A DNA stretch of 64,000 nt from a virus: the IMG/VR virus record IMGVR_UViG_3300050821_005343, positions 1-64,000 of that record; one strand, written 5' to 3'. The notes under the pieces are model-generated. The model was not told the DNA's origin, ran no database searches, and saw only the letters and a program-made list of their open reading frames with translations. Positions 23,608 to 62,118 of the stretch are shown piece by piece. Every line of letters begins with the position of its first letter. Position 1 is the first letter of the stretch. A program made the translations under genes and the position numbers.

Positions 23608-23678
23608 TAAGAGGTTGATTTTATTGCTTGCTGGTGCGGGCGGAGGGACTCGAACCGGCCATATAAATCAAAGACTTA
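23608..23678. other. attP site (tRNA 3'-end core with flanking IHF boxes)
   Basis: 23632-23656 is the reverse complement of GGTTCGAGTCCCTCCGCCCGCACCA; WATCAANNNNTTR matches at 23608-23620 (-) and 23666-23678 (+); abuts the integrase stop. Confidence 0.85.
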
Positions 23679-24689
23679 GGCATTTGTTTTCGACCGATCG
23701 GCAATAAGCCTGGCCAGCGCGGCGTCGGAAAGTTTTGGCACGCTCGCCTTGCGCGCATACAGCTTGGCCATGTCATTGCCAAGGATTGCTCCAATCTCCC
23801 GGTCAGTCGCTCCGCTCTCGGCGAGCTTGACCGCAAGTGCTTTGCGCAGCCCGTGCGCGCTGCCGGGAACGCCTGCGGCGACGCACGCTTCCTTAAACCA
23901 ATTGCCGAACGACTCCTTGACGAACGGGCGGCCGTAGTCGTTCACGACGAACGACTCACCGCCTGGTGTCGCTGCGATCGACCGCGCAAGGGGCGGCAGG
24001 ATGCGAATAGAGACCCGCTGGCCGGTCTTGGCGGTGTCTAAGATGATTGAGCCGTCCATGACGTTCTTCGGCCCTACGCGGGCAGCGTCGCCGCGTCGTA
24101 GGCCGGTCCATAGCATTAGGTCAAACGCCAGCCGTTCTCGCGTACCGACGTGCCAGTGCGACTCGAACCTCGAAAGTTCTTCGGTAGTCCATGTATGGAA
24201 ACCATCGCCACGCAATCTGGAGACTTTGATTCCGACAGTAGGGTCGACGTCTATGTGTTCTCTGGACAAAGCCCATTGAAAAATGGCGCGAAGCGTTCCG
24301 AGGAAGTTTCTGGCTTGAGCGGGTGTGCCAGATCGTGCATCAAGGCTTGCGATGATGAATTTACGGGTCCAGACTTCGAGGGGCTGGTTTCCGGCGCGCT
24401 CGAGGGCGACGCGCATGAGGTTGTCTCGCTGACGTTTAGTTGCAATGGATAGCCTAGACCAAGCCGGGCTTGCGCGGTAGAGATTCCAAAGCCACTCGAA
24501 CGAGCCTTCACCCCTTCTAGGTCGAGCAGCATTTGTTCCCGAGTCTGCAAGTCGGTATTCTCGTAAGAACTCTGCGCTTCCGTAGTCCCCGCGCAGACGA
24601 ACACGCCGCCCAGTTCCCCTCCGATAGTACCAAAACGTTTTACCACGGGATTCCTCTCGGCGTAGGTAGGGGAGTCTTGGTCTGGGCAT
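23676..24689 (-). CDS. int: Tyrosine integrase
   Basis: TGLRRGD, KTG, HGLRK and catalytic Y (LYAR); start at MPRPRLPYL. Confidence 0.95.
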   Translation of the reverse strand: MPRPRLPYLRREESRGKTFWYYRRGTGRRVRLRGDYGSAEFLREYRLADSGTNAARPRRGEGSFEWLWNLYRASPAWSRLSIATKRQRDNLMRVALERAGNQPLEVWTRKFIIASLDARSGTPAQARNFLGTLRAIFQWALSREHIDVDPTVGIKVSRLRGDGFHTWTTEELSRFESHWHVGTRERLAFDLMLWTGLRRGDAARVGPKNVMDGSIILDTAKTGQRVSIRILPPLARSIAATPGGESFVVNDYGRPFVKESFGNWFKEACVAAGVPGSAHGLRKALAVKLAESGATDREIGAILGNDMAKLYARKASVPKLSDAALARLIADRSKTNA

Positions 24690-24869
24690 GCACCCATTAT
24701 GCGTGCGCAACAGGTGGAGGCAAGCGTTTTTGTTTCGGCGCCGGCCCCGCCGACTGCACAATGCAAATCGCGCCGCTCGGCAAAAGCTCGACTTGCCAGA
24801 CGCCTGGTGCTTTGGCCGCCGCGCGTAGGGCGCGTGCAAGGTCGGCTTGGCGGTGGGTGGCGCGCTGGG

Positions 24870-32350: not shown

Positions 32351-35293
32351 TTAATTGGCCTCATAAGCCCCGATGGAAGGCGGATTAGCCCATGCCTTGC
32401 CGGCGTGGTCAGCGATTGGCTGTTGCGGTCCCAAATTGGTCCCCGCCCCTATGATGCCTGGGGTGAAAGTGGCTGTGACGAATATCCAGTTTGGCGTGTC
32501 TGGCACGGCGCCCGCACATCCAGCAGTGCAAGACTTCCACACACCCGCGGGATGATGACCCTGGCCTGTGGGAAGATCTGAGGTAACGACCCCATACGTC
32601 CCGTCGGGTTGTCCTGTCGGAAGGTTGAAGGCTGTCTTGACGGTTGCGACGATAGGAACCGAAGTCCCGGCGAAGGTCGGGTTGGGCCGCAAGTTGATGA
32701 CGCCGCTTGCCCCTACTGAACAAGCGCCCAGATCGGGGAACGAGTTCTCATTGCAGGGGTTGGCGAGCGGCACGGTGTAGCCCTGACCGCCACCGGGAGA
32801 CGAGTTAGTCGCGGGCTGGAGCAGCGGGTTATAGGCGACGAATAGGGAGGAAACCCCTGGCATGCCTGACCGGAAGTCCGTCTGCGTCCATGTGCTTAGG
32901 CCGATGTATTTCCCCAGAGTCGCACCAAAAGAACTGGCCCCACCGCCAATCGGGCAGTAAACCTGAGAGTTCGAGCCGACTCCTGGCGGCAGGAAGGGGA
33001 TGCTTAGATTAGTCTCGACCGTGCTTAAGTCGCCGGCAACAGGATCGCATAGGTTCGGGATTTCTGCTCTCGCGTCGCGCGAAACACCGTCGCCGATGTT
33101 GTTGGCTAGCAGAGCGTGGAGTGGGCCTTTGCCGCCGCCTTTCGGCTGGTTTCCAACCTCGACATCTTTGCCGAGTATGTCGTTATGAACTACAACATTG
33201 TATTGGCCGCTAATTCCTAGGCCGTTTGTTGACGCGACAACGATATTGTCAGCAACATAATCCCCCCAATGGTTATGTTCCGTGGTGTTGATACCTTGCA
33301 TGGTACGGGGGAAGTAGTTAGTCAGATCGGAGAATTGATAGAACTCATTCTCGATTGCCGCGTTGTTGAAGAAGGTATCGGTTGTCGCGGCTGATTCTCC
33401 ACGCCCGTTAGTGTCTCCGTATTGTATACCGTCTTGGTGCGCCCATATCTCAGTTGGGTCAGAATAGTAGTTGTGAACGACCCAATTTCGATGAGTTGAG
33501 TATTCATCGATTCCGTCGCCCGACGCCCATTTTATTTTGTTGTTATATAGGACGGTGTTGGTTGTGTTGCCCATGCCGAGGCCGTCATATACATCGCGGA
33601 TGATACTATCCTTCACGGACATGCATGTTGCCCCGACAAGAAGATTTGGGTGCGTCGGGTCAAAGCTGTGGGCAGTGTCTAACGCGCCGTGGAAAGATAT
33701 CCCAGATACTGAGCCGCCGTCCCAATCGACACTGTTCCAAGCACCGGCAGGTGTTATCTTCATTTGATCGGTGAAGGTGACTTTCTCGCCGGTCAGCGCG
33801 CGGGTCGTTCCGCTCCACGTGGGCGACGTTCCAACAGGGCATCCGCCTGTTTTGGTGGAGCTTCTCACTGCAAGGAATACCGGATCGCAGCCGGGGACGT
33901 TTGACGATAGGCCGGGGTAGTTCGTAGTCGGACAACCAGTGGCCGCGTCGGCGACTGGATCGCACGGCGCGATTGTCGCGACCAAGCCGTTTACGGCTAT
34001 GACCTTAGACCCGCTTGGGATACCTGTGGAGGGAGCAATCGTTACCGACCCATTATGAAAGTACCCAGGAGACCACACGTAATAGCCTAATGGGGCGGGG
34101 GAAGACGTTGTGATGGTAGTTGAGTTAGCGGGCGCAGTCACAGTCAAGATCGGGGGGTCTTGCGCGGCGCGGGCCGAGATCACTGGCGATGCGGTTACGA
34201 CCGTGCCGTCTGACAGCCCCCCGCTATTCGGATAACTGGAAGAAAACCACGGGTCTTCAGAATGGCCAAGCCATCCTGAGACGTGGATATCCTCAAAAAC
34301 GATATCTTTTCCGCTGGCGGAAACCGGGGGGTTGGCGCGATACTGCTCGACGTTGAAGCTCTTGAATAGATAGCCAGCAGCGCCGTTTTGGAGCAGGACT
34401 CTATGAAGGACCGGCCGCGTTGCTGCTGCCGGATCGCCCATGATCCACGTCCAAGCTACAGTCCCGTTCGCCGTCCCGTCGATTGTGCTATAGATGCCAT
34501 TAGTTTCCGTTATGTCACCGATGGGGTGGGTAGCATCTCCCGGTTCGATGTAGATCGTATCGCCGGGTTTAATGATCTTACCAATACCAAAGAGCGCGCC
34601 TCCGGTGTAGCCTGTGCCGCCGTTGAAGATCGCCGAAACGTCCTTGAAAGGAGAGCCGGCGTGTCCGGTCGCGCCGGCGTCCTTGGTCGTCCCTTTGATC
34701 GGGTCAAAGTACCAGACGTGAGCCTGGTCGAGGTTTGGCGAGACAGGCGGAATGTCACAGCCGGGGTAGATCGCGTGGCCCTGCTGTAGGAAGTGCGCGG
34801 GCGAAACAGGGAGGACTGCGGCGGCGGGATTAGTAGTCCAATTGCTCGTCTCAAACGCCGGAGGAGCAACTGGCGCGGACGGCTCAATCGGGCCGAACCA
34901 ATGGCTTGTCTGTGTGGTCGATCCGGTCAAACCATTAACCGTTTCGTCCAGCTCAATCGCTTGCCCGACGACAGCCGGCGTGGCCGAGACATCTACGGTG
35001 AGCGTCGAGCCGGAGCCAAGCGAGACTGTGGGCGCGTTGACCGTGTGCCAGTTGTAGGCCCGAGTAATGACTGAGCCCGTCCACTGCCCTGCCCCTGCCG
35101 TGAGCGTCAGCGTCGTTCCTTGGGCTACGGTGGACGTGCCATTGTTTGGATAATCAAGCCCGACGATCTCCGGGATGGCTGTATTGGCAGGAGCTAGATC
35201 TGCGCTGAGCGTAAACGCGGGAATGGAGGTAGGCGCAGCATGCGCCGCTGCACTTGCCGCAAACACGCACACCAATGCGATTAGCGCCCTCAC
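32351..35293 (-). CDS. Large secreted right-handed beta-helix (polysaccharide lyase-like) protein
   Basis: Signal peptide; IKPGDTIYI.PG, DGI/NN beta-helix repeats, HQDGIQ, C-terminal PSIGAYE. Confidence 0.75.
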   Translation of the reverse strand: MRALIALVCVFAASAAAHAAPTSIPAFTLSADLAPANTAIPEIVGLDYPNNGTSTVAQGTTLTLTAGAGQWTGSVITRAYNWHTVNAPTVSLGSGSTLTVDVSATPAVVGQAIELDETVNGLTGSTTQTSHWFGPIEPSAPVAPPAFETSNWTTNPAAAVLPVSPAHFLQQGHAIYPGCDIPPVSPNLDQAHVWYFDPIKGTTKDAGATGHAGSPFKDVSAIFNGGTGYTGGALFGIGKIIKPGDTIYIEPGDATHPIGDITETNGIYSTIDGTANGTVAWTWIMGDPAAATRPVLHRVLLQNGAAGYLFKSFNVEQYRANPPVSASGKDIVFEDIHVSGWLGHSEDPWFSSSYPNSGGLSDGTVVTASPVISARAAQDPPILTVTAPANSTTITTSSPAPLGYYVWSPGYFHNGSVTIAPSTGIPSGSKVIAVNGLVATIAPCDPVADAATGCPTTNYPGLSSNVPGCDPVFLAVRSSTKTGGCPVGTSPTWSGTTRALTGEKVTFTDQMKITPAGAWNSVDWDGGSVSGISFHGALDTAHSFDPTHPNLLVGATCMSVKDSIIRDVYDGLGMGNTTNTVLYNNKIKWASGDGIDEYSTHRNWVVHNYYSDPTEIWAHQDGIQYGDTNGRGESAATTDTFFNNAAIENEFYQFSDLTNYFPRTMQGINTTEHNHWGDYVADNIVVASTNGLGISGQYNVVVHNDILGKDVEVGNQPKGGGKGPLHALLANNIGDGVSRDARAEIPNLCDPVAGDLSTVETNLSIPFLPPGVGSNSQVYCPIGGGASSFGATLGKYIGLSTWTQTDFRSGMPGVSSLFVAYNPLLQPATNSSPGGGQGYTVPLANPCNENSFPDLGACSVGASGVINLRPNPTFAGTSVPIVATVKTAFNLPTGQPDGTYGVVTSDLPTGQGHHPAGVWKSCTAGCAGAVPDTPNWIFVTATFTPGIIGAGTNLGPQQPIADHAGKAWANPPSIGAYEAN

Positions 35294-35682
35294 GGTGCTG
35301 TTGCTCCAGTTCCGGCCGGGTAGGTCTGTGCGACGCCAGCCGCAACAAGCGCGAGGCTAAATGTTGGCGCGCTAGCCGTACTTGGCACCGAAATATTGAC
35401 CACCCGAAGTGCTGGGTCATTAATTGTTATACCGCTCGGCGTGGTTACCCAACCGACTGGAGACACGACACAGTTGAATATGATGGTTCCAGCAGGCGCG
35501 GCAGAGGCCAGACCAGATGCAGCCGCTGTGGGTGTACAAACCGTACCTGTCGAAGGCGGCCCGCTAAGAGTGAAGCTAGGGATATTGATTGAAGATACTT
35601 GCGCAGACGCGCTGCTAGCGCCGATGATAGATGCGGCGGCTATTGCTCGGATAACGCTTGCGGTCATTTTGAAATTCTCCAA
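35290..35682 (-). CDS. Small secreted Ig-like protein
   Basis: Signal peptide ending ASA-Q; two Cys; Ser/Thr/Ala-rich. Confidence 0.7.
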   Translation of the reverse strand: MENFKMTASVIRAIAAASIIGASSASAQVSSINIPSFTLSGPPSTGTVCTPTAAASGLASAAPAGTIIFNCVVSPVGWVTTPSGITINDPALRVVNISVPSTASAPTFSLALVAAGVAQTYPAGTGATAP

Positions 35683-35695
35683 TGTTTGGGCGGAC

Positions 35696-37150
35696 CTACT
35701 TGGCGGTCATCAGAAGGGCGAGTGCGCGGCCGAACGGCTCGCGCTCTTTGTGGATGTTGAATCTCTTGAGTATTTCAGCCATGAATTCTTCCCGCGGAAA
35801 GCCGGGGTGGCCGACGAACGGCGGGTAAAAATCAGTCGCAATGGCGAACCGCGCTCCCGGTCGCCCGTATGCCAGCATGTTGTCTAGGATTGAGCGCCAG
35901 CCGATTGCGTGGTCAATGGCGTTCCAGCAGATGACGGTATCGGCCCGCAGATTGGGAATGAGCTGCTCGGCTGGCTGGGAGTAAACCGTCACGCCTTCCC
36001 AATATTCCGTAGGGACGATTCCCTGATAGGCTAAGGCTAGCGGCTCGATAACCGCGCACGGGGCAAAGGGTGGACGCGGGCCGCAACCGATATCTAGGAT
36101 GTCGCCAGTCGGCTCAATGAACTCCTTGACTTCGTTCCACTGGATGGTGAACCCAGGATCAGCAAGGTGTCCCGTAGGAACGTGCTCTTTCCACCAATCT
36201 AGTTCGAACGGCTGATGGATTTGATGCCACGCATCCATCGTGCGGAGATTGTCGGTCATGGTAGCCTTGTCGTCGACCCAGGTTTGGTGATTTCCCGGCG
36301 CCAGCGAATAGCGCGTGGCGCGGGTGCATGATTTACAGATACTCGTGCCAGCGTTGCCGCATTTACGGTTCTCTGCTTGAAGCGACCGCATGACGTGGGA
36401 GTCGAACAGGCTCCAGTAGTCGCCCGTTAGCAGGTTGCCGATTACGTGCTTCATGGAATAGTCCATGCAGCACAGCACAACGTCGCCAGATGGGAGGACT
36501 ACGTTCTGGTCGTAGAATGGCGTATAACTGCAGGATACAGGCGTGTCGTATTGGGGCGTAGCCTCGATGGGCTGCTCGCCAATTTGTGCGGTGTCAAGGC
36601 TACCGGCCCGCGTTAGGCCGACCCACCCGGCTAGTTCTCCGACAGCCGCCTTCAAGCGGTCGTGGACCTCTCCGCCCTTGTCCATCGTCATGGCTTGGAA
36701 ATAGACGCGCTCGGTTTCTCCGAATTGCAGGAACTTCTTGAGGACTTTCCCGTATTCAGCTTTGTACCGCCAGCCGCGCATATTCCCCTTACTGTCGGGG
36801 AGGTGGAGGCAAAGAACCTCGACCTGATGCGCGTGCTTGTCTAAGAGCGCGATTATGCGCTCGGCGTCAGGGACCGTGATTCCGTAGAGGGTCGTATAGA
36901 CCGCAACGCGATAACCGCTTTCCAGGGCGTGCTGGAGCATGTCCGTGCAGTCGTCGTTGCTCCACGGTTCGGCCATGCCGCTAAAGTCGATGCGGACGTA
37001 GGTAGGAACTTTGGATAGGATGACCTTGAAATTATCCAGACTCATATATTTGTCTGGGTCTTTACCGTAGGTGGTTCGTAGCGCGTCCTGTGGGCAGAAG
37101 GTGCATTTTAATGGACAGCCGACCATCGTGGTAATTTCGAGGGATGGCAA
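35696..37150 (-). CDS. Radical SAM/SPASM protein fused to a class I SAM methyltransferase
   Basis: CPLKCTFC, G..EP, C...G.V..CC.D...IGNL...C..C, then ILDIGCG. Confidence 0.9.
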   Translation of the reverse strand: MPSLEITTMVGCPLKCTFCPQDALRTTYGKDPDKYMSLDNFKVILSKVPTYVRIDFSGMAEPWSNDDCTDMLQHALESGYRVAVYTTLYGITVPDAERIIALLDKHAHQVEVLCLHLPDSKGNMRGWRYKAEYGKVLKKFLQFGETERVYFQAMTMDKGGEVHDRLKAAVGELAGWVGLTRAGSLDTAQIGEQPIEATPQYDTPVSCSYTPFYDQNVVLPSGDVVLCCMDYSMKHVIGNLLTGDYWSLFDSHVMRSLQAENRKCGNAGTSICKSCTRATRYSLAPGNHQTWVDDKATMTDNLRTMDAWHQIHQPFELDWWKEHVPTGHLADPGFTIQWNEVKEFIEPTGDILDIGCGPRPPFAPCAVIEPLALAYQGIVPTEYWEGVTVYSQPAEQLIPNLRADTVICWNAIDHAIGWRSILDNMLAYGRPGARFAIATDFYPPFVGHPGFPREEFMAEILKRFNIHKEREPFGRALALLMTAK

Positions 37151-37230: not shown

Positions 37231-37401
37231 ATGAAAACAGGCTGGAGACTACAGGCTAAGGACGGCGTACCGCACTTTCGCCTTATGACTAACGGCTGGC
37301 TATTGCGGCCGCTCGTAAGGGCTAATTGCGAAAGCTACGCCTATGTCGCGCGCATAGATCGAGGTACGGTGTTGCCGCTCCGGCGGCCAGTGTTTTTTTG
37401 A
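37231..37401 (+). CDS. Small hypothetical protein (moron)
   Basis: GGAG RBS; start at MKTGWRL. Confidence 0.55.
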   Translation: MKTGWRLQAKDGVPHFRLMTNGWLLRPLVRANCESYAYVARIDRGTVLPLRRPVFF

Positions 37402-37994
37402 TGACCCCCGCCGAACTCATCTCATGGCGCAACGATAGGAGTAAGCATATGACCCTCTACACAGTCACAGCGGGCAACGCCTACTTCTGGCAGAACTTAG
37501 CCGTCAGAGCCCATTCGAAATACCAAGCTGCGGCGGCGTTCCGCGCCTATCTAGCCGCGCCTGAGCAGCGGGCCGAGGAGGAGTACGAGCAGAAGCAAGG
37601 CAAGATGCTCGTTGGCGATGACGAGCCGACAGACCGCAACCTGTACGTCTACAAGTTCGACGACGAAGACGTAGAAGAGACCGACCTGATTTCCCGTTAC
37701 ACGGGGAAGGTTGGAACTACTGTTTACGATGACCGACAGCGGCGGGAACGGTTGATGACTCCCCAACAACTAATAGACTGGCGCAAGCGCCTTGGCCTAA
37801 CCGCCAAGGCAGCCGCCGAGCAGTTAGGGCTTAGCATAAACGGCTATGCCGCTTATGAGCGGGGGTATGTAGGACGAGGATCGGCTATGAAAAAGCGCAT
37901 ACCTCGCCCCATCCCAAGGCACGTCGCGCTGGCGTGCGAACGGCTAGAACAGTTGAAGGCAACAGGAGAGATAGATGCCAATGTATCATGCTGA
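37401..37994 (+). CDS. Hypothetical domain fused to an XRE HTH regulator
   Basis: C-terminal WRKRLGLT...AAE.LG.S......YERG...IPRHVALAC; alternative starts at 37449 and 37755. Confidence 0.75.
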   Translation: MTPAELISWRNDRSKHMTLYTVTAGNAYFWQNLAVRAHSKYQAAAAFRAYLAAPEQRAEEEYEQKQGKMLVGDDEPTDRNLYVYKFDDEDVEETDLISRYTGKVGTTVYDDRQRRERLMTPQQLIDWRKRLGLTAKAAAEQLGLSINGYAAYERGYVGRGSAMKKRIPRPIPRHVALACERLEQLKATGEIDANVSC

Positions 37995-38184
37995 ACCAAA
38001 CCGCAGCGAACCAAACCGTTGGATGTGGTTTTCGGTAGAAACGCCGTCCGTATTCAAGGAACACAAGCTTCCAGCCTCTAGCGCTGATTGGTCAACTGCC
38101 GATCAGCGCAAGTTCCGAGAACTTGAAACCCTAGCCGAAAACTATAGCACGCACATCCATCGATCAGGATATCGGCGTGGCTAA
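37981..38184 (+). CDS. Small hypothetical protein (moron)
   Basis: AGGAG RBS; start could also be 37975. Confidence 0.5.
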   Translation: MYHAEPNRSEPNRWMWFSVETPSVFKEHKLPASSADWSTADQRKFRELETLAENYSTHIHRSGYRRG

Positions 38185-41100
38185 CTCCGCAGCCGCCGGC
38201 CGCCCAAACATCTCCGCCGTCCAGCCCGACATAGACCGTACAAACGGCGCTATCTCGCCCTTATATTTCTCCCAGCCGCGCCGGAACGTAACCCCGGCCG
38301 GCCACGGCTGGGCGCGGACGACGTGCTTGGCCGACGGCTCCATTGGCACCCCGCATAGGATGATGCGCTCAAAGCCAAGCTTGCGGGCGATTTTGACCGA
38401 AAACAGGCCGCTTGAGCCGGCCCAGTCCTCGACGTGGTGCGTGACGTTCGGCCCGCTGCGGTGTGCCCAGACCTGAGATGGCGCCGGATGACCGTTGGCC
38501 TCACGGCGTTTAAGCCAGTCAGCTAGTTTGGTTGGGTGTAGGCTGACGGCGATGCAAGGGCCGGCCGCTTGTGGAATCATGTCGTTGATGACGAATCGGG
38601 TTACTTCGCAGCCGACGCAAAGCGCCTCGGCTTCGGCCAGCTCCTCTTTGACTCTCTCGGAGCCGCCGACCACGAGGGCGATCTTGCGGGTGGTGGGCGC
38701 GACCGGCGCGGCAACACGCCCCGGCTTTGTCGCCTCGAAGCACATGGACTCGATGCGGTTGAACTTGTCGCCAATGACGCGCCCATGGCCCTCCACGCCG
38801 CGCAGGGCGGAATGGCGGCTGATGCCCACCTGACACTGCTCAATCGCCTCAAAGCCAGCGTAGCGCAGCAGGTTGGACATTACGCTGGCGGTCCACGCCA
38901 TCTGGTGCCCGTGAGAGAACAGGATAGCCTTAAGCGCGCCCTTTAGCGTTCCGTCACCTCCGAATTTCTTGGCAAAGTCGAAATAGGCTTGGTCCGCCAT
39001 GTTGGCGATCTGCTCAACCGATGGCACGACCACTCGCAAAACGCCACCCGGAGCCAATACGCGGAACGCCTCTTCAAAGAATCCTATGGCTTGGTGGCAT
39101 GAGACGTGCTCTATGCAGTGCTCAATGAAAATGTAATAGGCGCTATTTTCTGCCCACGGCAGCGGCTGGGTTACGTCTACGTCCGCGTCGTGATTTAGCC
39201 AGCCGGATAGCTTGTTTGTGCCGCAACCGAGATTGAGGAGGAGACCGGCTTCGACCGCCGGTAAGACCCCCTTCCCTTCTTCGGACGGACCACACGCGGT
39301 CGATACTTGGGGGACCGCAGATCCTTGGCTACCGGGTTCCTTTTTCGCTGACATCGCATCTTCAAAGAACCTATCCGTAGCCCACACGTCATTGTGGCAG
39401 TGGGTGATCCAGTCCAAGCCTAAACTCAAAACATTGTCGTGCGTAATCTGATGCTTGTCGCCCCTCACGGCTTTAATCGGCAACAGAAACACATCTGATT
39501 TGATCAAGTTCGCTATTACAATTTCAGGCGTCGGAGCGACCCGCCTAGCCTTCCAGTTGTAATTCTGAATGAATCCTGAATCCCGGACATAAGCGGTCTT
39601 GAAAACCATTAGGCCGGTTTCAATCCAACCGGCTATGTCCTTCTTCATGCCGGATACTTTGGTCGTGCAGCACTCCCGCTGCGCCTGAAGCATTTGGTCG
39701 ATGAGGCCGTCCACCGGAAGGCGCAGCAGGGAGTCGCCCTCGACGTGCGCGACGTAGGTAAATCCCTCCTCGACGGCAATCTCCAGCCCCTTGCAGAAGG
39801 CGCGGCCCCAGCCGTCTTTGCCCCCGCGGCTGAGATGTCCGACATTGTCACCAAAGTCGAAAACTCGATATTGGACCGAAGGATGCTGCTTCTTCCATGC
39901 CTCGCTGACGAGGGGCAGCGGCGAGGCGCTGTCGACCAGCAAGAGCGGAGCGCCGGGGTTAAGCGCGCTGGTTAGCTCCAGCCATTGCTCAGTGAGCGTC
40001 TGGCGAGCATCGCTGTCGACGTAGGTTGTGGCGAAGATTAGGAGCGGGGAGGTCTGGGATCGTCGCTCCCCGCCCGCACAAGAAGCAATCACAGCGCCAA
40101 GATCCCCTTGGGTGTTCGCTGCGTATCCTGTGGCACCGTGTATATGCGCGAACTCGCGCACTTTGTCAAGTGCCGATGGCATATCAATCCGCTTGTCGCA
40201 AGGATGCCGTTCTGTGTGACAGTCGCACGGATTGACTGGATCAATACCCAGCGTCGGCGTTAGGTGGGCGCCGGCCGCTTGTGTCGTGCGGAAGCTTTCC
40301 CTCCCGCCGTAGACGACAACCGAAGGCAGTCCGACCGCTTGCGCCAGGACCGGAGCAAACCCGGCATTGAAGAAACCAATGTCGGCAATCGAGAACAAAG
40401 CCGCCATCGTCTCGAAATCAAGCTCACCGCTGTGTAACTTAACGTCGGCTGGCTGTTCTTCGCCGACTATCCACTCCAGCTTCGGCTCAAGGTCAGCAAT
40501 CGAGACAACGAAATACCCAGATCTAGCCGCTGCATAGAGCGCCGCATAGGCAGCCGAATCGGGGTTTCTGCTTTCACCGTTCCACTCCCGTCGACGAACA
40601 ACCGGCCGGTAGAGCATAAGCGGCTTGCCGCCCGTGTCCCACCCGGCCCGCAGCGCCTCGGCCTTCGCGCGCCATTCGGCCGGGATCGGCAACGAGAAGT
40701 CGCCCCGCTTACCCGCTAAGCCGCACTCGGCCATCATCGTCTCGAGGATAGAGCCGTAAATATCTATTTGCTCTTTTTTGTACCAAAGCTTGACGCGCCG
40801 AGCGTCCCCCGGTTCACGCGATGGTACTTTGAATAAATGCTGCTCGCGCTCGATCGTCTTGGATTGCGCGCGTAGTCTCGTCGACTTGAATGTTAGGTGA
40901 AGTCCCTCGGCGACGAGATCATGGTAGAGCTGCCAGTGGCACGTCGATAGCCAAACCTCGTGGGTTTGCATCAGCTCGCGCACGACGGCGCGCTGGTGCA
41001 AATTGTCGCCGATTCCCCACATGCCGTCGATGACAATGGCGGGCTTGGGCGTTCCTGGCGCGACCGCAGGCAGGACGAAGGGCGGCTGGGTGTCAACCGC

Positions 41101-41256
41101 CGTCACAACCATGCCGGAAGAGCGAAGCCGGTCGGCCTCCTTATCGACTAGCTCTACACCCTCAAGGGTCTTATGCGGCTGGAGATAGCGCTGTATGCTG
41201 CTCGCGTCATAGAATATGCGCAGGCTAGGGCTGGGGTTGCGGATGTTGTAGATCAT
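38164..41256 (-). CDS. Multi-domain glycosyltransferase/methyltransferase (GT9-like, GT-A-like, class I MTase, DUF115/Maf-like)
   Basis: GIGD and PC.C....C...I (GT9); LLVDS.S and VEGD (GT-A); LNLGCG, EH.IEH, RVL.PGG (MTase); ALVVGG and SSG...GF.RIILCGV. Confidence 0.85.
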   Translation of the reverse strand: MIYNIRNPSPSLRIFYDASSIQRYLQPHKTLEGVELVDKEADRLRSSGMVVTAVDTQPPFVLPAVAPGTPKPAIVIDGMWGIGDNLHQRAVVRELMQTHEVWLSTCHWQLYHDLVAEGLHLTFKSTRLRAQSKTIEREQHLFKVPSREPGDARRVKLWYKKEQIDIYGSILETMMAECGLAGKRGDFSLPIPAEWRAKAEALRAGWDTGGKPLMLYRPVVRRREWNGESRNPDSAAYAALYAAARSGYFVVSIADLEPKLEWIVGEEQPADVKLHSGELDFETMAALFSIADIGFFNAGFAPVLAQAVGLPSVVVYGGRESFRTTQAAGAHLTPTLGIDPVNPCDCHTERHPCDKRIDMPSALDKVREFAHIHGATGYAANTQGDLGAVIASCAGGERRSQTSPLLIFATTYVDSDARQTLTEQWLELTSALNPGAPLLLVDSASPLPLVSEAWKKQHPSVQYRVFDFGDNVGHLSRGGKDGWGRAFCKGLEIAVEEGFTYVAHVEGDSLLRLPVDGLIDQMLQAQRECCTTKVSGMKKDIAGWIETGLMVFKTAYVRDSGFIQNYNWKARRVAPTPEIVIANLIKSDVFLLPIKAVRGDKHQITHDNVLSLGLDWITHCHNDVWATDRFFEDAMSAKKEPGSQGSAVPQVSTACGPSEEGKGVLPAVEAGLLLNLGCGTNKLSGWLNHDADVDVTQPLPWAENSAYYIFIEHCIEHVSCHQAIGFFEEAFRVLAPGGVLRVVVPSVEQIANMADQAYFDFAKKFGGDGTLKGALKAILFSHGHQMAWTASVMSNLLRYAGFEAIEQCQVGISRHSALRGVEGHGRVIGDKFNRIESMCFEATKPGRVAAPVAPTTRKIALVVGGSERVKEELAEAEALCVGCEVTRFVINDMIPQAAGPCIAVSLHPTKLADWLKRREANGHPAPSQVWAHRSGPNVTHHVEDWAGSSGLFSVKIARKLGFERIILCGVPMEPSAKHVVRAQPWPAGVTFRRGWEKYKGEIAPFVRSMSGWTAEMFGRPAAAELATPIS
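39195..39359 (-). CDS. Overprinted ArfA-like basic peptide (alternative frame)
   Basis: KRNPVAKDLRSPKYRPRVVRPKKGRGSYRR in the +1 frame of the GT linker. Confidence 0.55.
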   Translation of the reverse strand: MRCQRKRNPVAKDLRSPKYRPRVVRPKKGRGSYRRSKPVSSSISVAAQTSYPAG

Positions 41257-42218
41257 GGCGTCGGGTAGGTTCCAGTGTATGCATTGGAAGCAACAGGCGG
41301 GCCGCCAAACTTGTAGAATCCCGTACCTGGGGACACTGAATAGATGCCGAAATTGTAGTCCGGCGGAGGATTTGGAACAAAATAGCCAGCAGCATCAAAA
41401 GATCCGCCGGGGAACCGCGCTCCCCCTACATAGCTCACCTGAAACATTGATGGCGTAGACGGCCAGACAACAGGTGTCGAGCCCGCTGTAGATTTATCAA
41501 CATTTAGGGTTAAGGAACCACCGCGGAATAAGCCAACCCGAGAATACGTCCCGCCCTCTATTACAGCAGGATGAAAGCCAATAAAAGAATACAGTGCGTC
41601 ATCTGTGGAGGGGGTCGTATCAAGGACGGTTGCGACAAAGTGCGTCGTGGATGTTGGCCCTGGATCGTTGAGCGGGTTTTTGGGCTTGATGGGGAACCGT
41701 GGGTCATTCTCGTCAAAAAAATAAATAGACTTGGAGTATAGACTAATGCCGACAGGAGAGGGCCACGGGCCGGTGGCTGTTTGAGGTTGGCTGCGGTCCT
41801 GAGATATGCCAGTACCCACAACAAGCTGCGTATATCCATCAGGCAGCTCTGGCGCCCCCGTTCCCCACACATAATCGGTCGTATCATCAGCCTGATCAGT
41901 TAGCGAAAACTGGACCGAGGATTGCAGGGAGCTAACGTCAAAAATAAATGTTCGGATATATTCGTTTTGGGTAAGATCGTCTACCGGGACGGGGATTGTT
42001 TGCAAGTTATTCAGAAGCTCAGCCCCCGAAGGGGCGTTATTGGTTATCGTAACACTTACCGGCTTAACGGTATTGAAGAGGGCTGGGTGAGCCACTGAAT
42101 TATTATTGATGATCAAATCAGACCACTCGAATATGACCAAAAGCAGATATGCCCCCCAATTGACGTTGACGATCATCTGAAGCGGGTCAAGCCTATACGG
42201 CGGATTGATCTTCGCCAT
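41253..42218 (-). CDS. Putative tail tip/receptor-binding protein
   Basis: End of the tail operon; N-terminal PPYRLDP.Q.IVNV.W; beta-rich. Confidence 0.6.
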   Translation of the reverse strand: MAKINPPYRLDPLQMIVNVNWGAYLLLVIFEWSDLIINNNSVAHPALFNTVKPVSVTITNNAPSGAELLNNLQTIPVPVDDLTQNEYIRTFIFDVSSLQSSVQFSLTDQADDTTDYVWGTGAPELPDGYTQLVVGTGISQDRSQPQTATGPWPSPVGISLYSKSIYFFDENDPRFPIKPKNPLNDPGPTSTTHFVATVLDTTPSTDDALYSFIGFHPAVIEGGTYSRVGLFRGGSLTLNVDKSTAGSTPVVWPSTPSMFQVSYVGGARFPGGSFDAAGYFVPNPPPDYNFGIYSVSPGTGFYKFGGPPVASNAYTGTYPTP

Positions 42219-43013: not shown

Positions 43014-43835
43014 CTATGCTCCGGATGTTGGCTCTAGGAGGCCGAACAGATCCCATTCGTCGGCGGCTACTTTCTTGATCGTGCAGGTCGCGCCCTCGGC
43101 CGCCGTCTCGTCAAGGAATCCGGTTACTCCGTTCAAGACTACGGGCGATGATCCAACAAAACTGATTCCGGCTGCATTCGCCTGCCGAAAATGGATTTCA
43201 GTTCCGATTGAAAAATTGACAGACGTATCAGCAGGGATGTGTACCGTGCAGCCGCTGGAGTTGGTCAGTCGATTGTAGGTGCCCGCGTCGGTGAGTGCGG
43301 GTGTGAATGACGTCCCGGTTTTAGTCTGGACCGGAGAGCCTGCAGCGCCGGGGGGCTCCCACGCCACGTCAAAGTCAGTTCCCGAAACCTTGGTCAGCAC
43401 TTCGCCGGTAGAGCCGCCTGTCGGCAGCGCCTCGCTTGGGTTACTCAGCAACAGTCCGTAAAAGTCAGAGCCGCTGCCGTTGTTGGCTCCAGGATCGAAG
43501 GTTCCATCGCTGGTATGGCCGATGAGTACAAGGTAGGTTGATCCACCTTCAGTGATAATGTCATTGGCGCTATAGACGGTGTCGGGCGCCCAAGCGCCGC
43601 GGAACGTGAAGGTCGCAGTCGGCAGGGTGACTGCCGGAAGAAAGGTGCCGTCGGTGAGTCGGGTCTGAAGTTGGTTGTTCGAGACCACCGCCATACTGGC
43701 GACGCCAGCGCCGGTCGCTGCTTTGGCGTTGATCAGCCCAACGAGAGTGAAGAAGTTCTCGTCGATCTGCGCAGCCGCAAGGTCGCTGCCCTGGCCGCCG
43801 CCCCATGCGCCGGGGGTTCTGTAGATGACCGTCAT
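43014..43835 (-). CDS. Tail fibre-like protein with a CBM5/12-like motif
   Basis: QID.NF, FRGAW...T.Y..ND......Y.....HTS, LP.GG..G.VL.K....D.D..W, terminal W.L.G.L. Confidence 0.75.
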   Translation of the reverse strand: MTVIYRTPGAWGGGQGSDLAAAQIDENFFTLVGLINAKAATGAGVASMAVVSNNQLQTRLTDGTFLPAVTLPTATFTFRGAWAPDTVYSANDIITEGGSTYLVLIGHTSDGTFDPGANNGSGSDFYGLLLSNPSEALPTGGSTGEVLTKVSGTDFDVAWEPPGAAGSPVQTKTGTSFTPALTDAGTYNRLTNSSGCTVHIPADTSVNFSIGTEIHFRQANAAGISFVGSSPVVLNGVTGFLDETAAEGATCTIKKVAADEWDLFGLLEPTSGA

Positions 43836-57650: not shown

Positions 57651-58027
57651 GGGGAGCTTCCTTCAAGGTTGGCGTTGATCGGCGAGGCGGTCACCGTCAT
57701 GATTCCAGCAACCACGGTGGCGGGATTTCCCCCTGCATCGACCGTCGTCGCACTGTGATAGTAATTTCCGAGCAGGGAGATGGTGTCCTCAATTACGAGG
57801 CTGACCACGAACGTATCAGGGGGCGATGCCGCAATGACGATGTCTCCAGGACTGCCGGTCGATTTCACGATGATTGGAACTAGCGAAGTCACGCTGCCAG
57901 ATGTCTGGCTATAGGCCCGCCAATTCACCGTCGCGTTGACGAGCGAGATGCCGTCAGCGGGATCGAGATGAAAGGTTACGTTAAGATTATCGCCCGCGGC
58001 GATAGGGAAATTCTGGAGCGCTGGCAT
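57647..58027 (-). CDS. BppU-N-like Ig-fold virion protein
   Basis: AGD.....F, L...DT..L.G.YYH, TV..G...V. Confidence 0.65.
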   Translation of the reverse strand: MPALQNFPIAAGDNLNVTFHLDPADGISLVNATVNWRAYSQTSGSVTSLVPIIVKSTGSPGDIVIAASPPDTFVVSLVIEDTISLLGNYYHSATTVDAGGNPATVVAGIMTVTASPINANLEGSSP

Positions 58028-58888
58028 TTAGTTTGACTTCCTTCCAGCACGGAGTTGCGGGCTGTCTCGGTCGGCTAGAAGAAAAGGCGAATCCCGGTCA
58101 GCGCGTAGGTTTATGTTGCGGGGTGGGACCACAATCTGGGGTCGTATTGAGAAAGCAAAGATATCGGCAGTTTCAGTTAGCGACAGTTCTGCCTGATTGT
58201 CGTTAAATCCAGCGAAAGCAAAGGAATCGGCCGCTTCCGTGAGGGCGAACGAGACGGCGTTGGCGTTAAAGGTAACTAAGGCGAAAGCGTCAGGCGGCTC
58301 AGTGAACGCAAACGATGCGCTGATGATGTCGGACGCATTAAACGAAAAGACGTCTGGCTGCTCGGTGACGGCGAACGAAGCGCTATTGACATCAGATGCG
58401 GCGAAGGCGAAAGAGTCCGCAGTCTCTGTTACTGCGAACGATGCTTGGTTGGAATCAGTAGCCGCAAAAGCAAAGGCGTCTGCGGCTTCCGTAACCGCAA
58501 ATGAAACGCTATTAAGATTGGCGGCAACGAAGGAGAATGCATCCGCCGCCTCTGCGACAGCTAAGGCTGCTTGGTTAACGTCCGTCGCGGCGAAAGCAAA
58601 GGTATCTGCGACTTCAGTGACTGCGAAGGATGCGTTATTTGCGTCAGAAGCCGCGAAAGCGAATGTGTCTGCGGCTTCAGTAACGGAGAATGATGCGCTG
58701 TTAACATCCGTCGCGGCAATGGAAAAAGTATCAGCAGGCTCCGTGACGGCAACGGACGCATTGTTGACATCTGCGCCGACGAAAGAAAAAGTATCAGACG
58801 GCTCTGTGAGCGCCAGGGTCGCCTGATTAGCGGGCGACGAGGCAAGAGAGCTTACCGGCGCTTCTGATACTGCTTCTAGCCCAAGCAT
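58028..58888 (-). CDS. Virion fibre protein with 22-aa tandem repeats
   Basis: About 11 copies of NxASFAVTEAADxFAFAAxDxx. Confidence 0.8.
   Translation of the reverse strand: MLGLEAVSEAPVSSLASSPANQATLALTEPSDTFSFVGADVNNASVAVTEPADTFSIAATDVNSASFSVTEAADTFAFAASDANNASFAVTEVADTFAFAATDVNQAALAVAEAADAFSFVAANLNSVSFAVTEAADAFAFAATDSNQASFAVTETADSFAFAASDVNSASFAVTEQPDVFSFNASDIISASFAFTEPPDAFALVTFNANAVSFALTEAADSFAFAGFNDNQAELSLTETADIFAFSIRPQIVVPPRNINLRADRDSPFLLADRDSPQLRAGRKSN
58160..58830 (-). repeat. 66-bp degenerate tandem repeat
   Basis: DNA underlying the 22-aa protein repeat. Confidence 0.85.
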
Positions 58889-58905
58889 GGCAGCCCCTGC
58901 TTAGG

Positions 58906-59826
58906 TTAGTGTTGGTACCAAGACTTTAGGGTGGCTGCAATGGCGGCTGTTTGCGTCCCGATAGCTCCTGTATTGAAATCTATAAATATGCCTACATTTG
59001 TATAGCCAGACGTTCCTAAATAGCCAGAAGATTTTGCTACTGTAAACAACTGGATAAAACTTACCCCATCAACTGAATTGGAGAACGTTACATTAGTCCC
59101 GTCGTCGCTAACTCGGAAATAAACCTCTGATGGCGAATATTGGAAAAACACCGGCCCGTAATCAGTCGCGGTAAATGTTGTCGCGTTTGAATAATGCTCA
59201 ACTACAAGTTTGTTTACAATTGGTGCCGAATTGGTAACAAATACTTCCATCGCCTGGTATTTTGTCCCGTCTGTCCATCCCATGCCAAACGTATTATTAC
59301 CATCCGACGGCCCGTAAACACTAAGTGTAGCATCTATTGTGTACGGGGTTGATGGGGACGCAATCGTCATGCCCCTCAATATAATGCTGTTCTGACTCGC
59401 CGTTTCCTTTAGAAATGGACCTATCGGACTGTCGACAAGACTCGTAGTGCCCGCAAAATTTCGCTGCGTCCAGTTGGCTGCTAGTGGAGGGGCTACGCGA
59501 GGCGGGTGGCGCAGCGCCGAGGCCGGCTCCGTCAGAAAGACGGTGCTGGTGCCGGTAAGGCTGACAAGGACTCCGGGACCACTTGAGCCGTCCAACACAT
59601 TCGCAGCCGTTCGCGTTAGCGTTGTCCCACTCAGAGTATAGGTGCTGGCGCCCTGTATTTCCCAACCTGTGCCGTTGCCGCTAATGATGCAAATATTGCA
59701 CTGGTTGCCGTTGCCGACGACGGCAAACGATTGGAACCCCGTCGCCGCCCCAGCAAGGGTCAGCGTGCCGGTTCCTGTTGTCGCGGTCGTTTCTTTGACG
59801 CGATCCGCAATGACTAGGCCGGTCAT
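58906..59826 (-). CDS. Fibre/receptor-binding protein with lectin-like C-terminus
   Basis: ADRVKET..T.GTG..TL.GA..GF.SF N-terminus; AT-rich beta-sandwich-like C-terminus. Confidence 0.75.
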   Translation of the reverse strand: MTGLVIADRVKETTATTGTGTLTLAGAATGFQSFAVVGNGNQCNICIISGNGTGWEIQGASTYTLSGTTLTRTAANVLDGSSGPGVLVSLTGTSTVFLTEPASALRHPPRVAPPLAANWTQRNFAGTTSLVDSPIGPFLKETASQNSIILRGMTIASPSTPYTIDATLSVYGPSDGNNTFGMGWTDGTKYQAMEVFVTNSAPIVNKLVVEHYSNATTFTATDYGPVFFQYSPSEVYFRVSDDGTNVTFSNSVDGVSFIQLFTVAKSSGYLGTSGYTNVGIFIDFNTGAIGTQTAAIAATLKSWYQH

Positions 59827-60261: not shown

Positions 60262-60675
60262 CTACGGGCTGGTAATAGTTCCCGAGGTGACGCTGACCGG
60301 AATGCCGGTCGAAAACGTCGTTGTGGTTACAATGATGCTCGTCGCGCTGGTGCCGACCGTGAGTCCGCTAACGACGGTATTGCCGGCGCTGTCACGCAAT
60401 TCAGCCAGAGCCGCCGTGCCGTTGGCGGCTGGAGTTGCTGAGAGCGGTGTGCCCTGCAGCGTCGCCACTTTTGAAGCAACCGTGAAGGGGGGCGTGGAAG
60501 TCAGCGTGACGGTAGCCAGCACGCCCGTAGCGCCGGAAAGCCCAGAGGTGCCGATGACGAGCAAGCCACCTCCAGCAGTCTGACCATTGACCGAGACGCC
60601 CGCCGCAGTGCCGGTGGCGTTATAGGTTTGAGTAAGCCGGGCATTGGCCGCGGCGGTAGAATAGGCGATAGCCAT
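60262..60675 (-). CDS. Virion structural protein (Thr/Gly-rich)
   Basis: YS....NARL...GTA..A......G..V..GLTVG.S. Confidence 0.75.
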   Translation of the reverse strand: MAIAYSTAAANARLTQTYNATGTAAGVSVNGQTAGGGLLVIGTSGLSGATGVLATVTLTSTPPFTVASKVATLQGTPLSATPAANGTAALAELRDSAGNTVVSGLTVGTSATSIIVTTTTFSTGIPVSVTSGTITSP

Positions 60676-60679
60676 GACC

Positions 60680-60988
60680 TTAGCCCTCTATGGGTTGTTT
60701 TGGAGGACGCCCACGACGAGGCGCTATAGTGACGGCCTCGTCTGGGTCCGCGTGAAGAACGGCCGGAATGTCAACCGGCTGGACACGCTGCGGCTTCACC
60801 ACCGGATCTCGTTCCGTAATCTTGAGATCCGGCCGGATGGCGCGCTTTAAGATGGAAACCACATGCTCTGCGAGCTTCACGCCCACGCGGGTCTCGCCGG
60901 GGTCGATGCTGATGGGCTTAAGATTGCTAATCCCATCATAGAATGTGCGCCGACTGGCGGTCGGGTTGTGAATATCGCAGAGGATCAT
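60680..60988 (-). CDS. Post-capsid small protein with C-terminal AT-hook
   Basis: Directly after the major capsid gene; ends PRRGRPPK. Confidence 0.75.
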   Translation of the reverse strand: MILCDIHNPTASRRTFYDGISNLKPISIDPGETRVGVKLAEHVVSILKRAIRPDLKITERDPVVKPQRVQPVDIPAVLHADPDEAVTIAPRRGRPPKQPIEG

Positions 60989-61983: not shown

Positions 61984-62118
61984 TTTGTATTTCTCCTGGC
62001 CCGCGGCTCTTAGGCGCAGGGCTGAAATGTGAATGGGGGTTTGTGATGCAAAAACTTGCGTATGACGCAACGTCTTACGCAAGCCTGTAGGTTTAGTTGC
62101 GTGGGCGCGAGCTTAGGT

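Follow-up and report, generated by a model that had tools for sequence, protein, structure and literature searches.

A domain shared by a post-capsid protein and several phage glyco-enzymes: a possible address tag for glycosylation at the phage head

Why does a large phage enzyme, apparently devoted to glycan assembly, begin with a domain that also forms a small protein encoded next to the major capsid gene? The question is raised by a 1030-residue open reading frame (positions 38164-41256) in the complete, 78-kb genome of an uncultured phage, of which the window analysed here covers 64,000 nucleotides. All features given with coordinates lie on the minus strand. A preliminary description had proposed that the shared N-terminus docks the enzyme on the capsid. 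To our knowledge, glycosylated phage particles are proven for a few actinophages only, and we know of no account of how phage glycosylation enzymes find their targets.

The small protein (102 aa; 60680-60988) has 11 close homologues and 43 representatives at E ≤ 1e-3, and matches no Pfam or PHROG family. Pairwise similarity between the two N-termini is marginal (BLASTP, 14/40 identities, E 0.002). Their Smith-Waterman raw score of 55 was matched in at most 1 of 20,000 shuffles and ranks second among 5253 N-terminus pairs in the genome. A narrow HMM of the 11 close homologues gave 7.5 bits (E 0.32) on the enzyme. A broad HMM, constructed from 45 diverse family members found among 1.84 billion proteins with the enzyme left out, aligned profile positions 2-50 with enzyme residues 1-47, starting at Met1 (22.3 bits, E 4.3e-6); the runner-up among 1562 six-frame ORFs of the genome reached only E 2.9. 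The pairwise E value, the narrow profile and the further N-terminus pairs that score nearly as high would be compatible with a resemblance due to chance or composition, but we consider this extremely improbable and reject it. The broad profile match is anchored at Met1, an orthologous metagenome enzyme (L010) carries a canonical copy of the domain (52.8 bits), and the other pairs with high scores reflect genuine features, either signal peptides or methylase paralogues. Judged by profile comparison, which the preliminary description had recommended, the resemblance it noticed by eye is a real homologous domain.

This domain represents an undescribed family of about 60 residues, beta-rich, with the pattern YDIHNPT...RR.IYDG...PGET and without a Pfam or PHROG family. 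It occupies residues 1-62 of the small protein (60803-60988), where it is nearly invariant in close homologues and modelled by AF2 with pLDDT >90, and residues 1-53 of the enzyme (41098-41256; pLDDT 75-85). Two independent AF2 runs, that of the enzyme using a four-sequence enzyme-only alignment, were compared by secondary-structure order and gave the same beta-beta-beta-beta-alpha-beta arrangement (small protein: E2-7, E14-16, E26-28, E33-39, H41-49, E56-60; enzyme: E2-6, E13-16, E22-25, E30-35, H38-46, E50-53). The near-invariant residues of the small protein are N8, P9, R14, D18, G19, I26, T33 and L55. The most conserved positions of the domain lie in loops (NPT...R.IYDG, PGET) and not in the core, and the domain ends in a conserved hydrophobic-x-hydrophobic-T-E stretch. 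The enzyme tag retains N, P, R, D and T, with T10 changed to Ser (NPT to NPS), G19 to Ala (YDG to YDA) and PGET to PHKT; the L010 tag retains NPT and YDG. Compared with P0013, a metagenome homologue of the enzyme (86% identity), the tag is 98% identical and the later linkers 22-38%; the tag is under constraint. No known decoration or capsid-binding protein matches the predicted fold convincingly (Foldseek PDB E ≥ 0.15, VIA Z ≤ 5.3, BFVD E ≥ 2e-3), and the domain matches no known carbohydrate-binding or DNA-binding fold in structure or sequence.

The enzyme tag is closer to distant family members (Smith-Waterman scores 99, 86 and 85) than to the small protein of its own genome (55), and its branch in the family tree is long. 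These observations point to an old modular domain and not to a recent intragenomic copy, so that the earlier wording, in which the enzyme "copies" the post-capsid protein, was misleading.

Sequence searches indicate that the domain also heads several different phage glyco-enzymes in metagenomes, a new observation. The proposed search for other fused enzymes returned at least four other architectures, with the domain N-terminal. L010 is a full-length orthologue of the whole enzyme (975 aa, 50% identity). L015 combines the tag with a phrog_6804 GT-B domain, L014 and the fragment P0037 combine it with a stand-alone MptE/Maf-like domain, and P0028 and L012 carry two tandem tags in front of a possible GT-A (GT2-like) domain. 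Four tags on three different catalytic domains form one clade (support 98/84). Because it fronts other sugar-adding enzymes in other phages, the domain looks like a portable address tag.

The gene for the free-standing form, the small protein, lies 8 nt from the major capsid protein gene immediately upstream (60997-62082; phrog_264, E 2.4e-83), and the same order, directly after the capsid gene, is found in L011 and in a separate L009/L013 lineage, giving at least two lineages. The head module further contains a cement/decoration-type protein gene (62119-62646; phrog_563, E 4e-17), placed where cyanophage Pam3 encodes its annotated cement protein, and a protease-scaffold fusion (phrog_530). 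The capsid protein is 38-42% identical to those of Rhizobium and Sinorhizobium phages and of Pam3; its relatives infect Gram-negative hosts and cyanobacteria. Beyond its domain, the small protein continues as a long linker, flexible in the AF2 model, and carries near its C-terminus an AT-hook-like basic motif, PRRGRPPK (60698-60721). Within it, RRGRP (R91, R92, G93, R94, P95) is invariant in 11/11 homologues despite the varying linker before it. The motif has the R-G-R-P core and basic flanks of an AT-hook, from which DNA binding is predicted, and tails of basic or GRP type are found repeatedly in the family. With such a tail, a role directed at DNA or at the interior is conceivable. Serine and threonine make up 9% of the small protein, which is therefore not an obvious O-glycan acceptor.

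Behind the tag and a Pro-rich linker (residues 54-72; 41041-41097; low pLDDT), the enzyme is composed of four domains, whose borders were set by the variable linkers of the P0013 and L010 homologues. The preliminary description had named them GT9-like, GT-A-like, SAM-methyltransferase and DUF115/Maf-like. The methyltransferase assignment is borne out, the GT9 and MptE assignments are weak, and the GT-A assignment is only a lead; all but the methyltransferase fall below curated thresholds. Residues 73-368 (40153-41040) match phrog_6804 (E 2.5e-35) and, by tblastn, Pseudomonas phage D3 orf12-type proteins, some records of which are annotated GT9 or GT-B. The only PDB match of a profile of six phage sequences, which did not hit TibC, is 1PSW, the ADP-heptose LPS heptosyltransferase II (WaaF), over about 95 residues of the C-terminal half (E 0.014). 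Neither PF01075 nor any other Pfam or NCBIfam model matched this region, even at E 10 and 0.1, and a GT9-like, heptosyltransferase-like GT-B domain is thus a weakly supported assignment. Residues 405-635 (39352-40044) have no Pfam or NCBIfam match; their ESM Atlas neighbours are viral and bacterial clusters of about 240 aa (scores 0.97-0.98), one auto-named 'glycosyl transferase family protein' and the others unnamed, a language-model lead towards a possible GT-A-like (GT2-like) transferase.

Residues 673-845 (38722-39240) form a class I SAM-dependent methyltransferase domain, which passes the PF08241 gathering cut-off of 21.2 bits both in isolation (27.3) and in the whole enzyme (22.8), and also matches phrog_6636 (methyltransferase). 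The C-terminal domain (residues 858-1030; 38167-38685) scores 16.2 bits against PF01973, below the cut-off of 34.6 (E 0.009). It shares 45% identity with the C-terminal part of L014, itself a match to phrog_4603 ('alpha-2,3-sialyltransferase'), and has a tblastn match in Paracoccus phage Pkon1 (E 4e-13); we regard it as weakly assigned to the MptE-like/DUF115/Maf-like group. The AF2 model of the whole enzyme is unusable past residue ~55, which leaves the fold of the second domain unreadable. The enzyme has no transmembrane segment.

The enzyme gene is placed in the late structural operon, apart from the replication genes. Its start codon, ATG, and the stop codon of the preceding ORF (41253-42218; 321 aa) overlap as ATGA, read directly from the sequence. 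The coupling is therefore real, but this ORF has no Pfam or PHROG match and is not recognisably the last tail gene, as had been thought. The closest tail-fibre-like gene lies two genes upstream of the enzyme (43014-43835; weak PHROG tail-fibre/minor-tail matches, E 1e-6 to 2e-3); the L010 gene comes after a tailspike-like gene. A radical SAM/SPASM-methyltransferase fusion is encoded next to the enzyme. Between the terminase (TerL) and portal genes, the phage encodes a split HldE (TIGR02198, rfaE_dom_I, E 4e-83; TIGR02199, rfaE_dom_II, E 1e-43) and HldD (TIGR02197, heptose_epim, E 1e-72). The phage thus has genes that help to make ADP-heptose, the donor of GT9 enzymes, which fits heptose transfer by the enzyme. 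The genome also carries a MazZ-like domain and DNA methylases, and no hydroxymethyl-pyrimidine synthesis gene was found among the ten largest early ORFs.

We tentatively propose, at a little under an even chance, that the tag brings the glyco-enzyme to a common partner, likely the head; capsid docking is plausible from gene position. The enzyme would be soluble and late-expressed, a glycan assembly enzyme of four modules (GT9-like GT-B, second probable transferase, SAM methyltransferase, MptE/Maf-like). Its likeliest product would be a methylated, heptose-containing glycan on phage proteins, with ADP-heptose partly supplied by the HldE and HldD of the phage. The domain, present as a tag of ~53 residues joined through the Pro-rich linker and, in free-standing form, as the AT-hook-tailed post-capsid protein, may be a portable adaptor that carries a fused DNA-binding tail or glyco-enzyme to one common partner. 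The most likely partner is some site on the head during its assembly, where the enzyme would be concentrated on its substrates. The homology of the two segments, the recurrence of the tag, the gene order, the ATGA coupling and the heptose genes are observations; we infer which sugar and which protein are involved and, more than anything, what the tag binds, and it is only gene position that suggests the capsid. The homology, the constraint on the tag, the late-operon placement, the ATGA coupling, the heptose genes, the recurrent tag, the capsid-adjacent free form and the lack of a transmembrane segment favour this proposal, and virion glycosylation in Che8-type mycobacteriophages is a precedent. 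Against it, the AT-hook-like tail suggests DNA inside the head while glycans are expected outside, the enzyme tag in the window has lost near-invariant family residues and has a long branch, Pseudomonas D3-like phages have the same enzymes without a tag, the predicted fold matches no known decoration or capsid-binding protein convincingly, and the catalytic assignments apart from the methyltransferase stay below curated thresholds.

If the proposal is correct, the tag would become the first candidate for a targeting device in phage self-glycosylation, a small, conserved and transferable domain linking a head-module protein with several unrelated sugar-transferring enzymes and a direct experimental handle on targeting. 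It would also suggest heptose-based particle coating in phages of Gram-negative-type lineages, which matters for how the immune system recognises phages and for their interactions with receptors and defences. A tag that binds a capsid lattice site might serve as a display or loading tool.

Alternatively, the domain may be an encapsidation signal that binds scaffold, core or portal within the procapsid, so that small protein and enzyme are packed and ejected with the DNA, as are the internal proteins and Alt of T4, whose capsid-targeting sequences are also N-terminal and common to small basic proteins and a large enzyme. We regard this as unlikely. The enzyme would then have its targets in the next host and act on them at an early stage of infection. 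The strictly N-terminal tag, the basic tail suited to packaged DNA, the protease-scaffold fusion and the conserved stretch at the domain end agree with such a signal. The T4 elements, however, are short peptides that the prohead protease cuts off, whereas the tag is a conserved domain of 60 residues with a fold of its own. A 113-kDa protein would also need to pass through the tail. Heptose-nucleotide genes co-expressed late with the head genes would be pointless for an enzyme acting after ejection. Tags on several separate single-domain glyco-enzymes are easier to explain if these act at a site of assembly than if many enzymes are injected. The full form of this idea, a head loaded with DNA-bound small protein and a 113-kDa heptose-transferring enzyme that are both injected, we consider slightly less probable still; it would mean that a ready-made protein-glycosylating enzyme is delivered to the next host and modifies targets at the onset of infection.

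It is also possible, though improbable in our view, that the domain homo-oligomerises, so that the free small protein is what the enzyme tag binds, with no third partner; the small protein would then be the substrate, a regulator or the bridge to DNA or head. One genome does have the same fold in both proteins, the tandem tags of P0028 and L012 indicate that two copies can sit adjacent, and the small protein's linker is long and flexible. A Ser/Thr-poor protein makes a poor candidate acceptor, however, and the greater similarity of the enzyme tag to foreign small proteins argues against tight co-evolution of the pair. We are similarly sceptical that the domain binds a small or polymeric ligand (glycan, sugar nucleotide or DNA) instead of a protein site. 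It would then resemble a carbohydrate-binding module on the enzymes and cooperate with the AT-hook on the small protein, a variant being that the enzymes modify phage DNA instead of proteins. Conservation in the loops and the tandem duplication, which is typical of carbohydrate-binding modules, would suit ligand binding, as would the neighbouring radical SAM fusion gene, the MazZ-like domain and the DNA methylases. The lack of a match to known carbohydrate-binding or DNA-binding folds, the late structural setting away from replication genes and the absence of a hydroxymethyl-pyrimidine synthesis gene among the early ORFs surveyed count against it, and the known targets of MptE/Maf and GT9/BAHT-type enzymes are proteins or LPS.

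Several known systems resemble parts of the proposed adaptor. In the post-capsid gene slot, the lambda packaging chaperone gpFI and YqbF of a B. subtilis prophage (HeH-type end) join a small folded domain through a flexible linker to an end that binds nucleic acid, a layout like that of the small protein, whose DNA-directed end is predicted. YqbF and HeH/LEM phage proteins are among the weak fold matches of the domain (Z 4.4, rmsd 6.4 Å, Foldseek E >0.2, not significant), but sequence similarity is absent, and we know of no protein of this type that lends its domain to enzymes. Che8-type mycobacteriophages encode glycosyltransferases that are believed to build a coat of glycans on the capsid proteins of the same phage (Freeman et al. 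2023, Cell Host Microbe, as cited in PMC11256854). Our phage is comparable by analogy; its capsid relatives infect Gram-negative hosts and cyanobacteria. The Che8-type enzymes are encoded by separate genes near the genome end, in phages of Actinobacteria, whereas here the enzymes are fused in one chain with an address domain and accompanied by ADP-heptose genes. We know of no report that the Che8-type enzymes share a tag with a head-module protein.

Among cellular enzymes, the GT9 LPS heptosyltransferases WaaC and WaaF and the bacterial autotransporter heptosyltransferases TibC and Aah are of GT-B type, as predicted for the phage domain, and use ADP-heptose. The likeness to GT9 consists of 1PSW together with the HldE and HldD genes, and its limits are those of the short PDB match and of the unmatched PF01075 and TibC. 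The Maf/MptE-like flagellin nonulosonic-acid transferases (PF01973, formerly DUF115) offer a further analogy. The weakly similar C-terminal phage domain is, like Maf, paired with sugar-modifying enzymes and probably acts on a protein; it lies outside a flagellar locus, and nonulosonic-acid synthesis genes were not seen here. A phage parallel is the split DUF115-like/GT9-like/methyltransferase cassette of Pseudomonas D3-like siphophages (PMG1, PAJU2, Psp6). It differs in having separate genes between the head-tail joining genes, without the N-terminal tag or domain 2, and no members of the tag family were found in these cassette loci. It does encode a homologous GT-B domain (~30% identity, E 1e-17 to 4e-24), with methyltransferase and 'sialyltransferase' neighbour genes inside the virion module.

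The window covers the first 64 kb of a viral record that is complete (77,861 bp, with direct terminal repeats), and whose late genes lie nearly all on the minus strand. Their order runs from terminase through HldE/HldD-type sugar genes to the portal, all past the window end, and continues with a protease-scaffold gene (from 62749(-); phrog_530), a cement-type protein (62119-62646(-); phrog_563), the major capsid protein (60997-62082(-); phrog_264, E = 2e-83) and, directly after the capsid gene, a 102-aa small protein (60680-60988(-)). Next come other virion genes, those for the very large tail proteins, a tail-fibre-like gene of the late module (43014-43835(-)), two ORFs and finally the 1030-aa glyco-enzyme (38164-41256(-)). 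The enzyme is ATGA-coupled, as the preliminary description had stated, its ATG overlapping the stop of the ORF at 41253-42218; the coordinates and translations in that description were both correct. The capsid protein shares 38-42% identity with its counterparts in Rhizobium phages, Sinorhizobium phages, cyanophage Pam3 and others, and the Pam3 equivalents of the window's head slots are annotated as scaffold, cement and capsid.

The enzyme N-terminus had been described as copying the post-capsid protein. By BLASTP the two share 14/40 identities (E = 0.002), which is marginal taken alone. Their raw Smith-Waterman score of 55 was matched by no more than 1 in 20,000 shuffles, and the pair ranked second among 5253 N-terminus pairs of the genome's proteins. 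The other top pairs are explained by signal peptides and DNA-methylase paralogues, which are real features, so the tail of this score distribution is not noise. Among 1.84 billion representative proteins, a profile search identified 43 members of the small-protein family. A narrow profile, made from 11 homologues nearly identical to the small protein, scored the enzyme at 7.5 bits; being too specific, it was replaced by one of 45 family members, built without the enzyme. This broad profile matched enzyme residues 1-47 with 22.3 bits in an alignment starting at Met1 (E = 4.3e-6 in a search of the genome's 1562 six-frame ORFs, where the second-best match had E = 2.9). Judged by sequence, the N-terminal segment of the enzyme is a genuine member of the family. 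It scores higher against distant members (Smith-Waterman 99, 86 and 85) than against the small protein of its own genome, indicating that it is no recent copy of the capsid-neighbour protein. Thus, the proposed relationship holds as homology, but not as recent copying.

Nearly all family members are 72-162 aa long; they share the pattern YDIHNPT..RR.IYDG....I.I.PGET..GV.LA.H, have a linker rich in Pro and end in a basic segment. AF2 modelling from the family alignment predicts residues 1-60 of the small protein as four strands, a helix and a fifth strand (pLDDT >90), and the remainder as disordered. In a model of the whole enzyme, based on four enzyme sequences only, residues 1-53 (hereafter the tag) reach pLDDT 75-85 with the same element order, the two models being compared through secondary-structure order alone; the mean pLDDT is 39.8 and the catalytic domains are not usable. 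Fold searches with the domain gave no convincing match in the PDB by Foldseek (E ≥0.15), by VIA-align (best Z 5.3) or in BFVD (E ≥2e-3), and neither Pfam nor PHROGs has a family covering it. YqbF and small phage proteins of the HeH/LEM type, which likewise combine a small domain with a DNA-binding end, appear among the weak fold matches; we treat this likeness as a lead only. Close homologues of the small protein share an invariant R-R-G-R-P near the C-terminus, behind a variable linker, and this tail is, from its residues, an AT-hook-type motif.

We did not detect the small protein in cultured phages by tblastn (E ≤1), and neither the post-capsid proteins of Pam3 and HMSP1-Susan nor the Pseudomonas D3-like phage loci match the family profile. 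Scans of IMG/VR, by related-locus search with queries including the enzyme and by DNA pattern, returned no relatives. In GTDB genomes a first DNA pattern had 0 matches, and three matches to a second were rejected as chance because agreement was confined to the pattern itself. A related-locus scan of JGI data gave 75 pattern matches, 0 of them confirmed, and a direct JGI scan with a degenerate DNA pattern for the motif recovered 8 metagenome loci. In the window and the closely related L011 the small protein directly follows the capsid gene, as it does in the separate lineage of L009 and L013. An apparent capsid-tag fusion in L013 (3496-4656(-)) could have served as a Rosetta-stone argument but was rejected: relative to L009 (763-2036(-)), about 147 nt encoding the conserved capsid C-terminus are missing and the frame reads into the small-protein gene. 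This capsid copy is probably defective or misassembled, and the fusion was not used as evidence.

Other enzymes fused to the domain, a search for which had been suggested in the preliminary description, are present in metagenome loci L010, L012, L014 and L015 and in the metagenome protein P0028; these fused forms came from the representative-protein profile search and the degenerate DNA-pattern scan. L010 encodes a 975-aa protein that aligns with the window enzyme from end to end at 50% identity, with a canonical tag (52.8 bits), phrog_6804, methyltransferase and MptE-like domains, in a gene that follows a tailspike-like gene. In L015 the tag precedes a phrog_6804 domain in a gene cut at the contig end. 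L014 joins the tag to a domain that shares 45% identity with the C-terminal domain of the enzyme and matches phrog_4603 ('alpha-2,3-sialyltransferase'). L012 and the 477-aa P0028, found in the representative search, carry two tandem tags before a domain that matches GT2 faintly (E = 0.08). P0037, listed among the small proteins, reads as a cut enzyme, ending in the start of an MptE-like domain.

In the domain tree, four tags borne by catalytic domains of three kinds group in a single supported clade (98/84), the tag of the window enzyme lies on a long branch, and enzyme-borne tags cluster beyond chance (4/500 shuffles); the inferred topology requires at least two origins for them. The relative P0013, 86% identical to the window enzyme, shows 98% identity in the tag and as little as 22-38% in the later linkers; against L010 the tag is 34% identical and the catalytic domains 50-62%. 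The tag is thus constrained over the short term and, over the long term, evolves faster than the catalytic domains. Free and fused forms are known together from one genome only, the complete genome of the window. These comparisons identify the domain as a mobile N-terminal module of several predicted phage glyco-enzymes, and its free form as a head-module gene.

Behind the tag, the enzyme comprises four modules, whose borders were drawn from linkers that vary in P0013 and L010. The first (residues 73-368) hits phrog_6804 (E = 2.5e-35) and also resembles the orf12-type proteins found in D3-like phages of Pseudomonas, labelled GT9 or GT-B in some records. A profile built from six sequences had one PDB match, the ADP-heptose LPS heptosyltransferase II (E = 0.014). 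The Pfam GT9 model does not match this region, and the earlier GT9-like assignment is weakly supported. For residues 405-635 no family match was found; a language-model search retrieved viral and bacterial proteins of ~240 aa, one cluster of which is automatically named glycosyl transferase, and the GT-A-like assignment is a lead. Residues 673-845 exceed the Pfam threshold for class I SAM methyltransferases, in line with the predicted methyltransferase domain. Residues 858-1030, where a DUF115/Maf-like domain had been proposed, resemble MptE-like PF01973 weakly (E = 0.009, below the Pfam cut-off). A PDB sequence search with the whole enzyme gave no match, and no membrane segment was found in it.

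Four minus-strand genes lie between terminase and portal, beyond the window (70761-74296 of the whole record; L016:6761-10296). They encode a heptose-7-phosphate kinase (HldE domain I; TIGR02198, E = 4e-83), a heptose-1-phosphate adenylyltransferase (HldE domain II; TIGR02199, E = 1e-43), an ADP-heptose 6-epimerase (HldD; TIGR02197, E = 1e-72) and a small cupin. The three TIGR matches fall below equivalog cut-offs, yet are the best by far. Given these genes, ADP-heptose is the likely donor for the GT9-like module.

For Che8-type mycobacteriophages, glycosylation of virions by phage-encoded enzymes is already established (as cited in PMC11256854). In the D3-like Pseudomonas siphophages PMG1, Psp6 and PAJU2 (L001-L003), MptE-like/'sialyltransferase'-like, GT-B and methyltransferase genes are separate; this cassette is untagged, split and located between head-tail joining genes, whereas the window enzyme is tagged and fused. 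We found no published function for the D3-like cassette. Literature searches returned no paper in which phage particles are the target of heptose-type or Maf-type enzymes, no targeting domain reported for phage-particle glycosylation enzymes, and nothing relevant on Detrevirus glycosyltransferases. What is new is a domain family with no earlier description, which is linked to the post-capsid gene and has been fused more than once to glyco-enzymes of different kinds.

Beyond the established segment homology, late-operon translational coupling of the enzyme and heptose-nucleotide genes, we tentatively propose, with slightly less than even confidence, that the domain is an adaptor by which different cargoes reach one shared partner. 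This partner would most likely be a site on the head as it assembles, and there the enzyme would equip virion proteins with a methylated glycan that contains heptose. The AT-hook tail suits an exterior role no better than one on the DNA side or in the interior. That the tag instead packs its cargo into the head for ejection seems unlikely; we consider it about equally improbable that it pairs with the free small protein itself, and give similarly little weight to a ligand-binding module, including a variant acting in DNA modification. Chance resemblance of the two segments, set beside the broad-profile match, is very improbable indeed.

Under the proposed head-directed adaptor, two virion proteins are possible glycan acceptors. 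Directly after the small protein lies a 137-aa 'virion structural protein' (phrog_3758; 60262-60675(-)) with 32% Ser+Thr. A 286-aa acidic virion-module protein (58028-58888(-)) contains about eleven 21-residue repeats (..ASFAVTEAADTFAFAA.D.N..); despite this protein period, TRF detects no tandem repeat in the DNA of 57900-59000. Its build resembles that of the heptosylated repeat passengers of AIDA-I-type adhesins, and by this analogy it may be glycosylated.

One gene cluster downstream of the enzyme, a 484-aa radical SAM/SPASM-methyltransferase fusion (35696-37150(-)) may tailor a sugar, peptide or base; between the two genes lies a 222-aa plus-strand protein with an XRE/MqsA-like helix-turn-helix (37326-37994(+)). 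A gene with a MazZ-like dATP/dGTP diphosphohydrolase N-terminal domain (PF18909; 24870-25526(-)) adjoins a tyrosine integrase (23676-24839(-)), hinting at nucleotide-pool editing and a temperate lifestyle. Four late minus-strand proteins, arranged as two small-plus-large pairs (32351-35293 with 35290-35682 in the window, and 64709-66382 with 66339-66665 in whole-record numbering), share signal-peptide-like starts and similar N-terminal regions.
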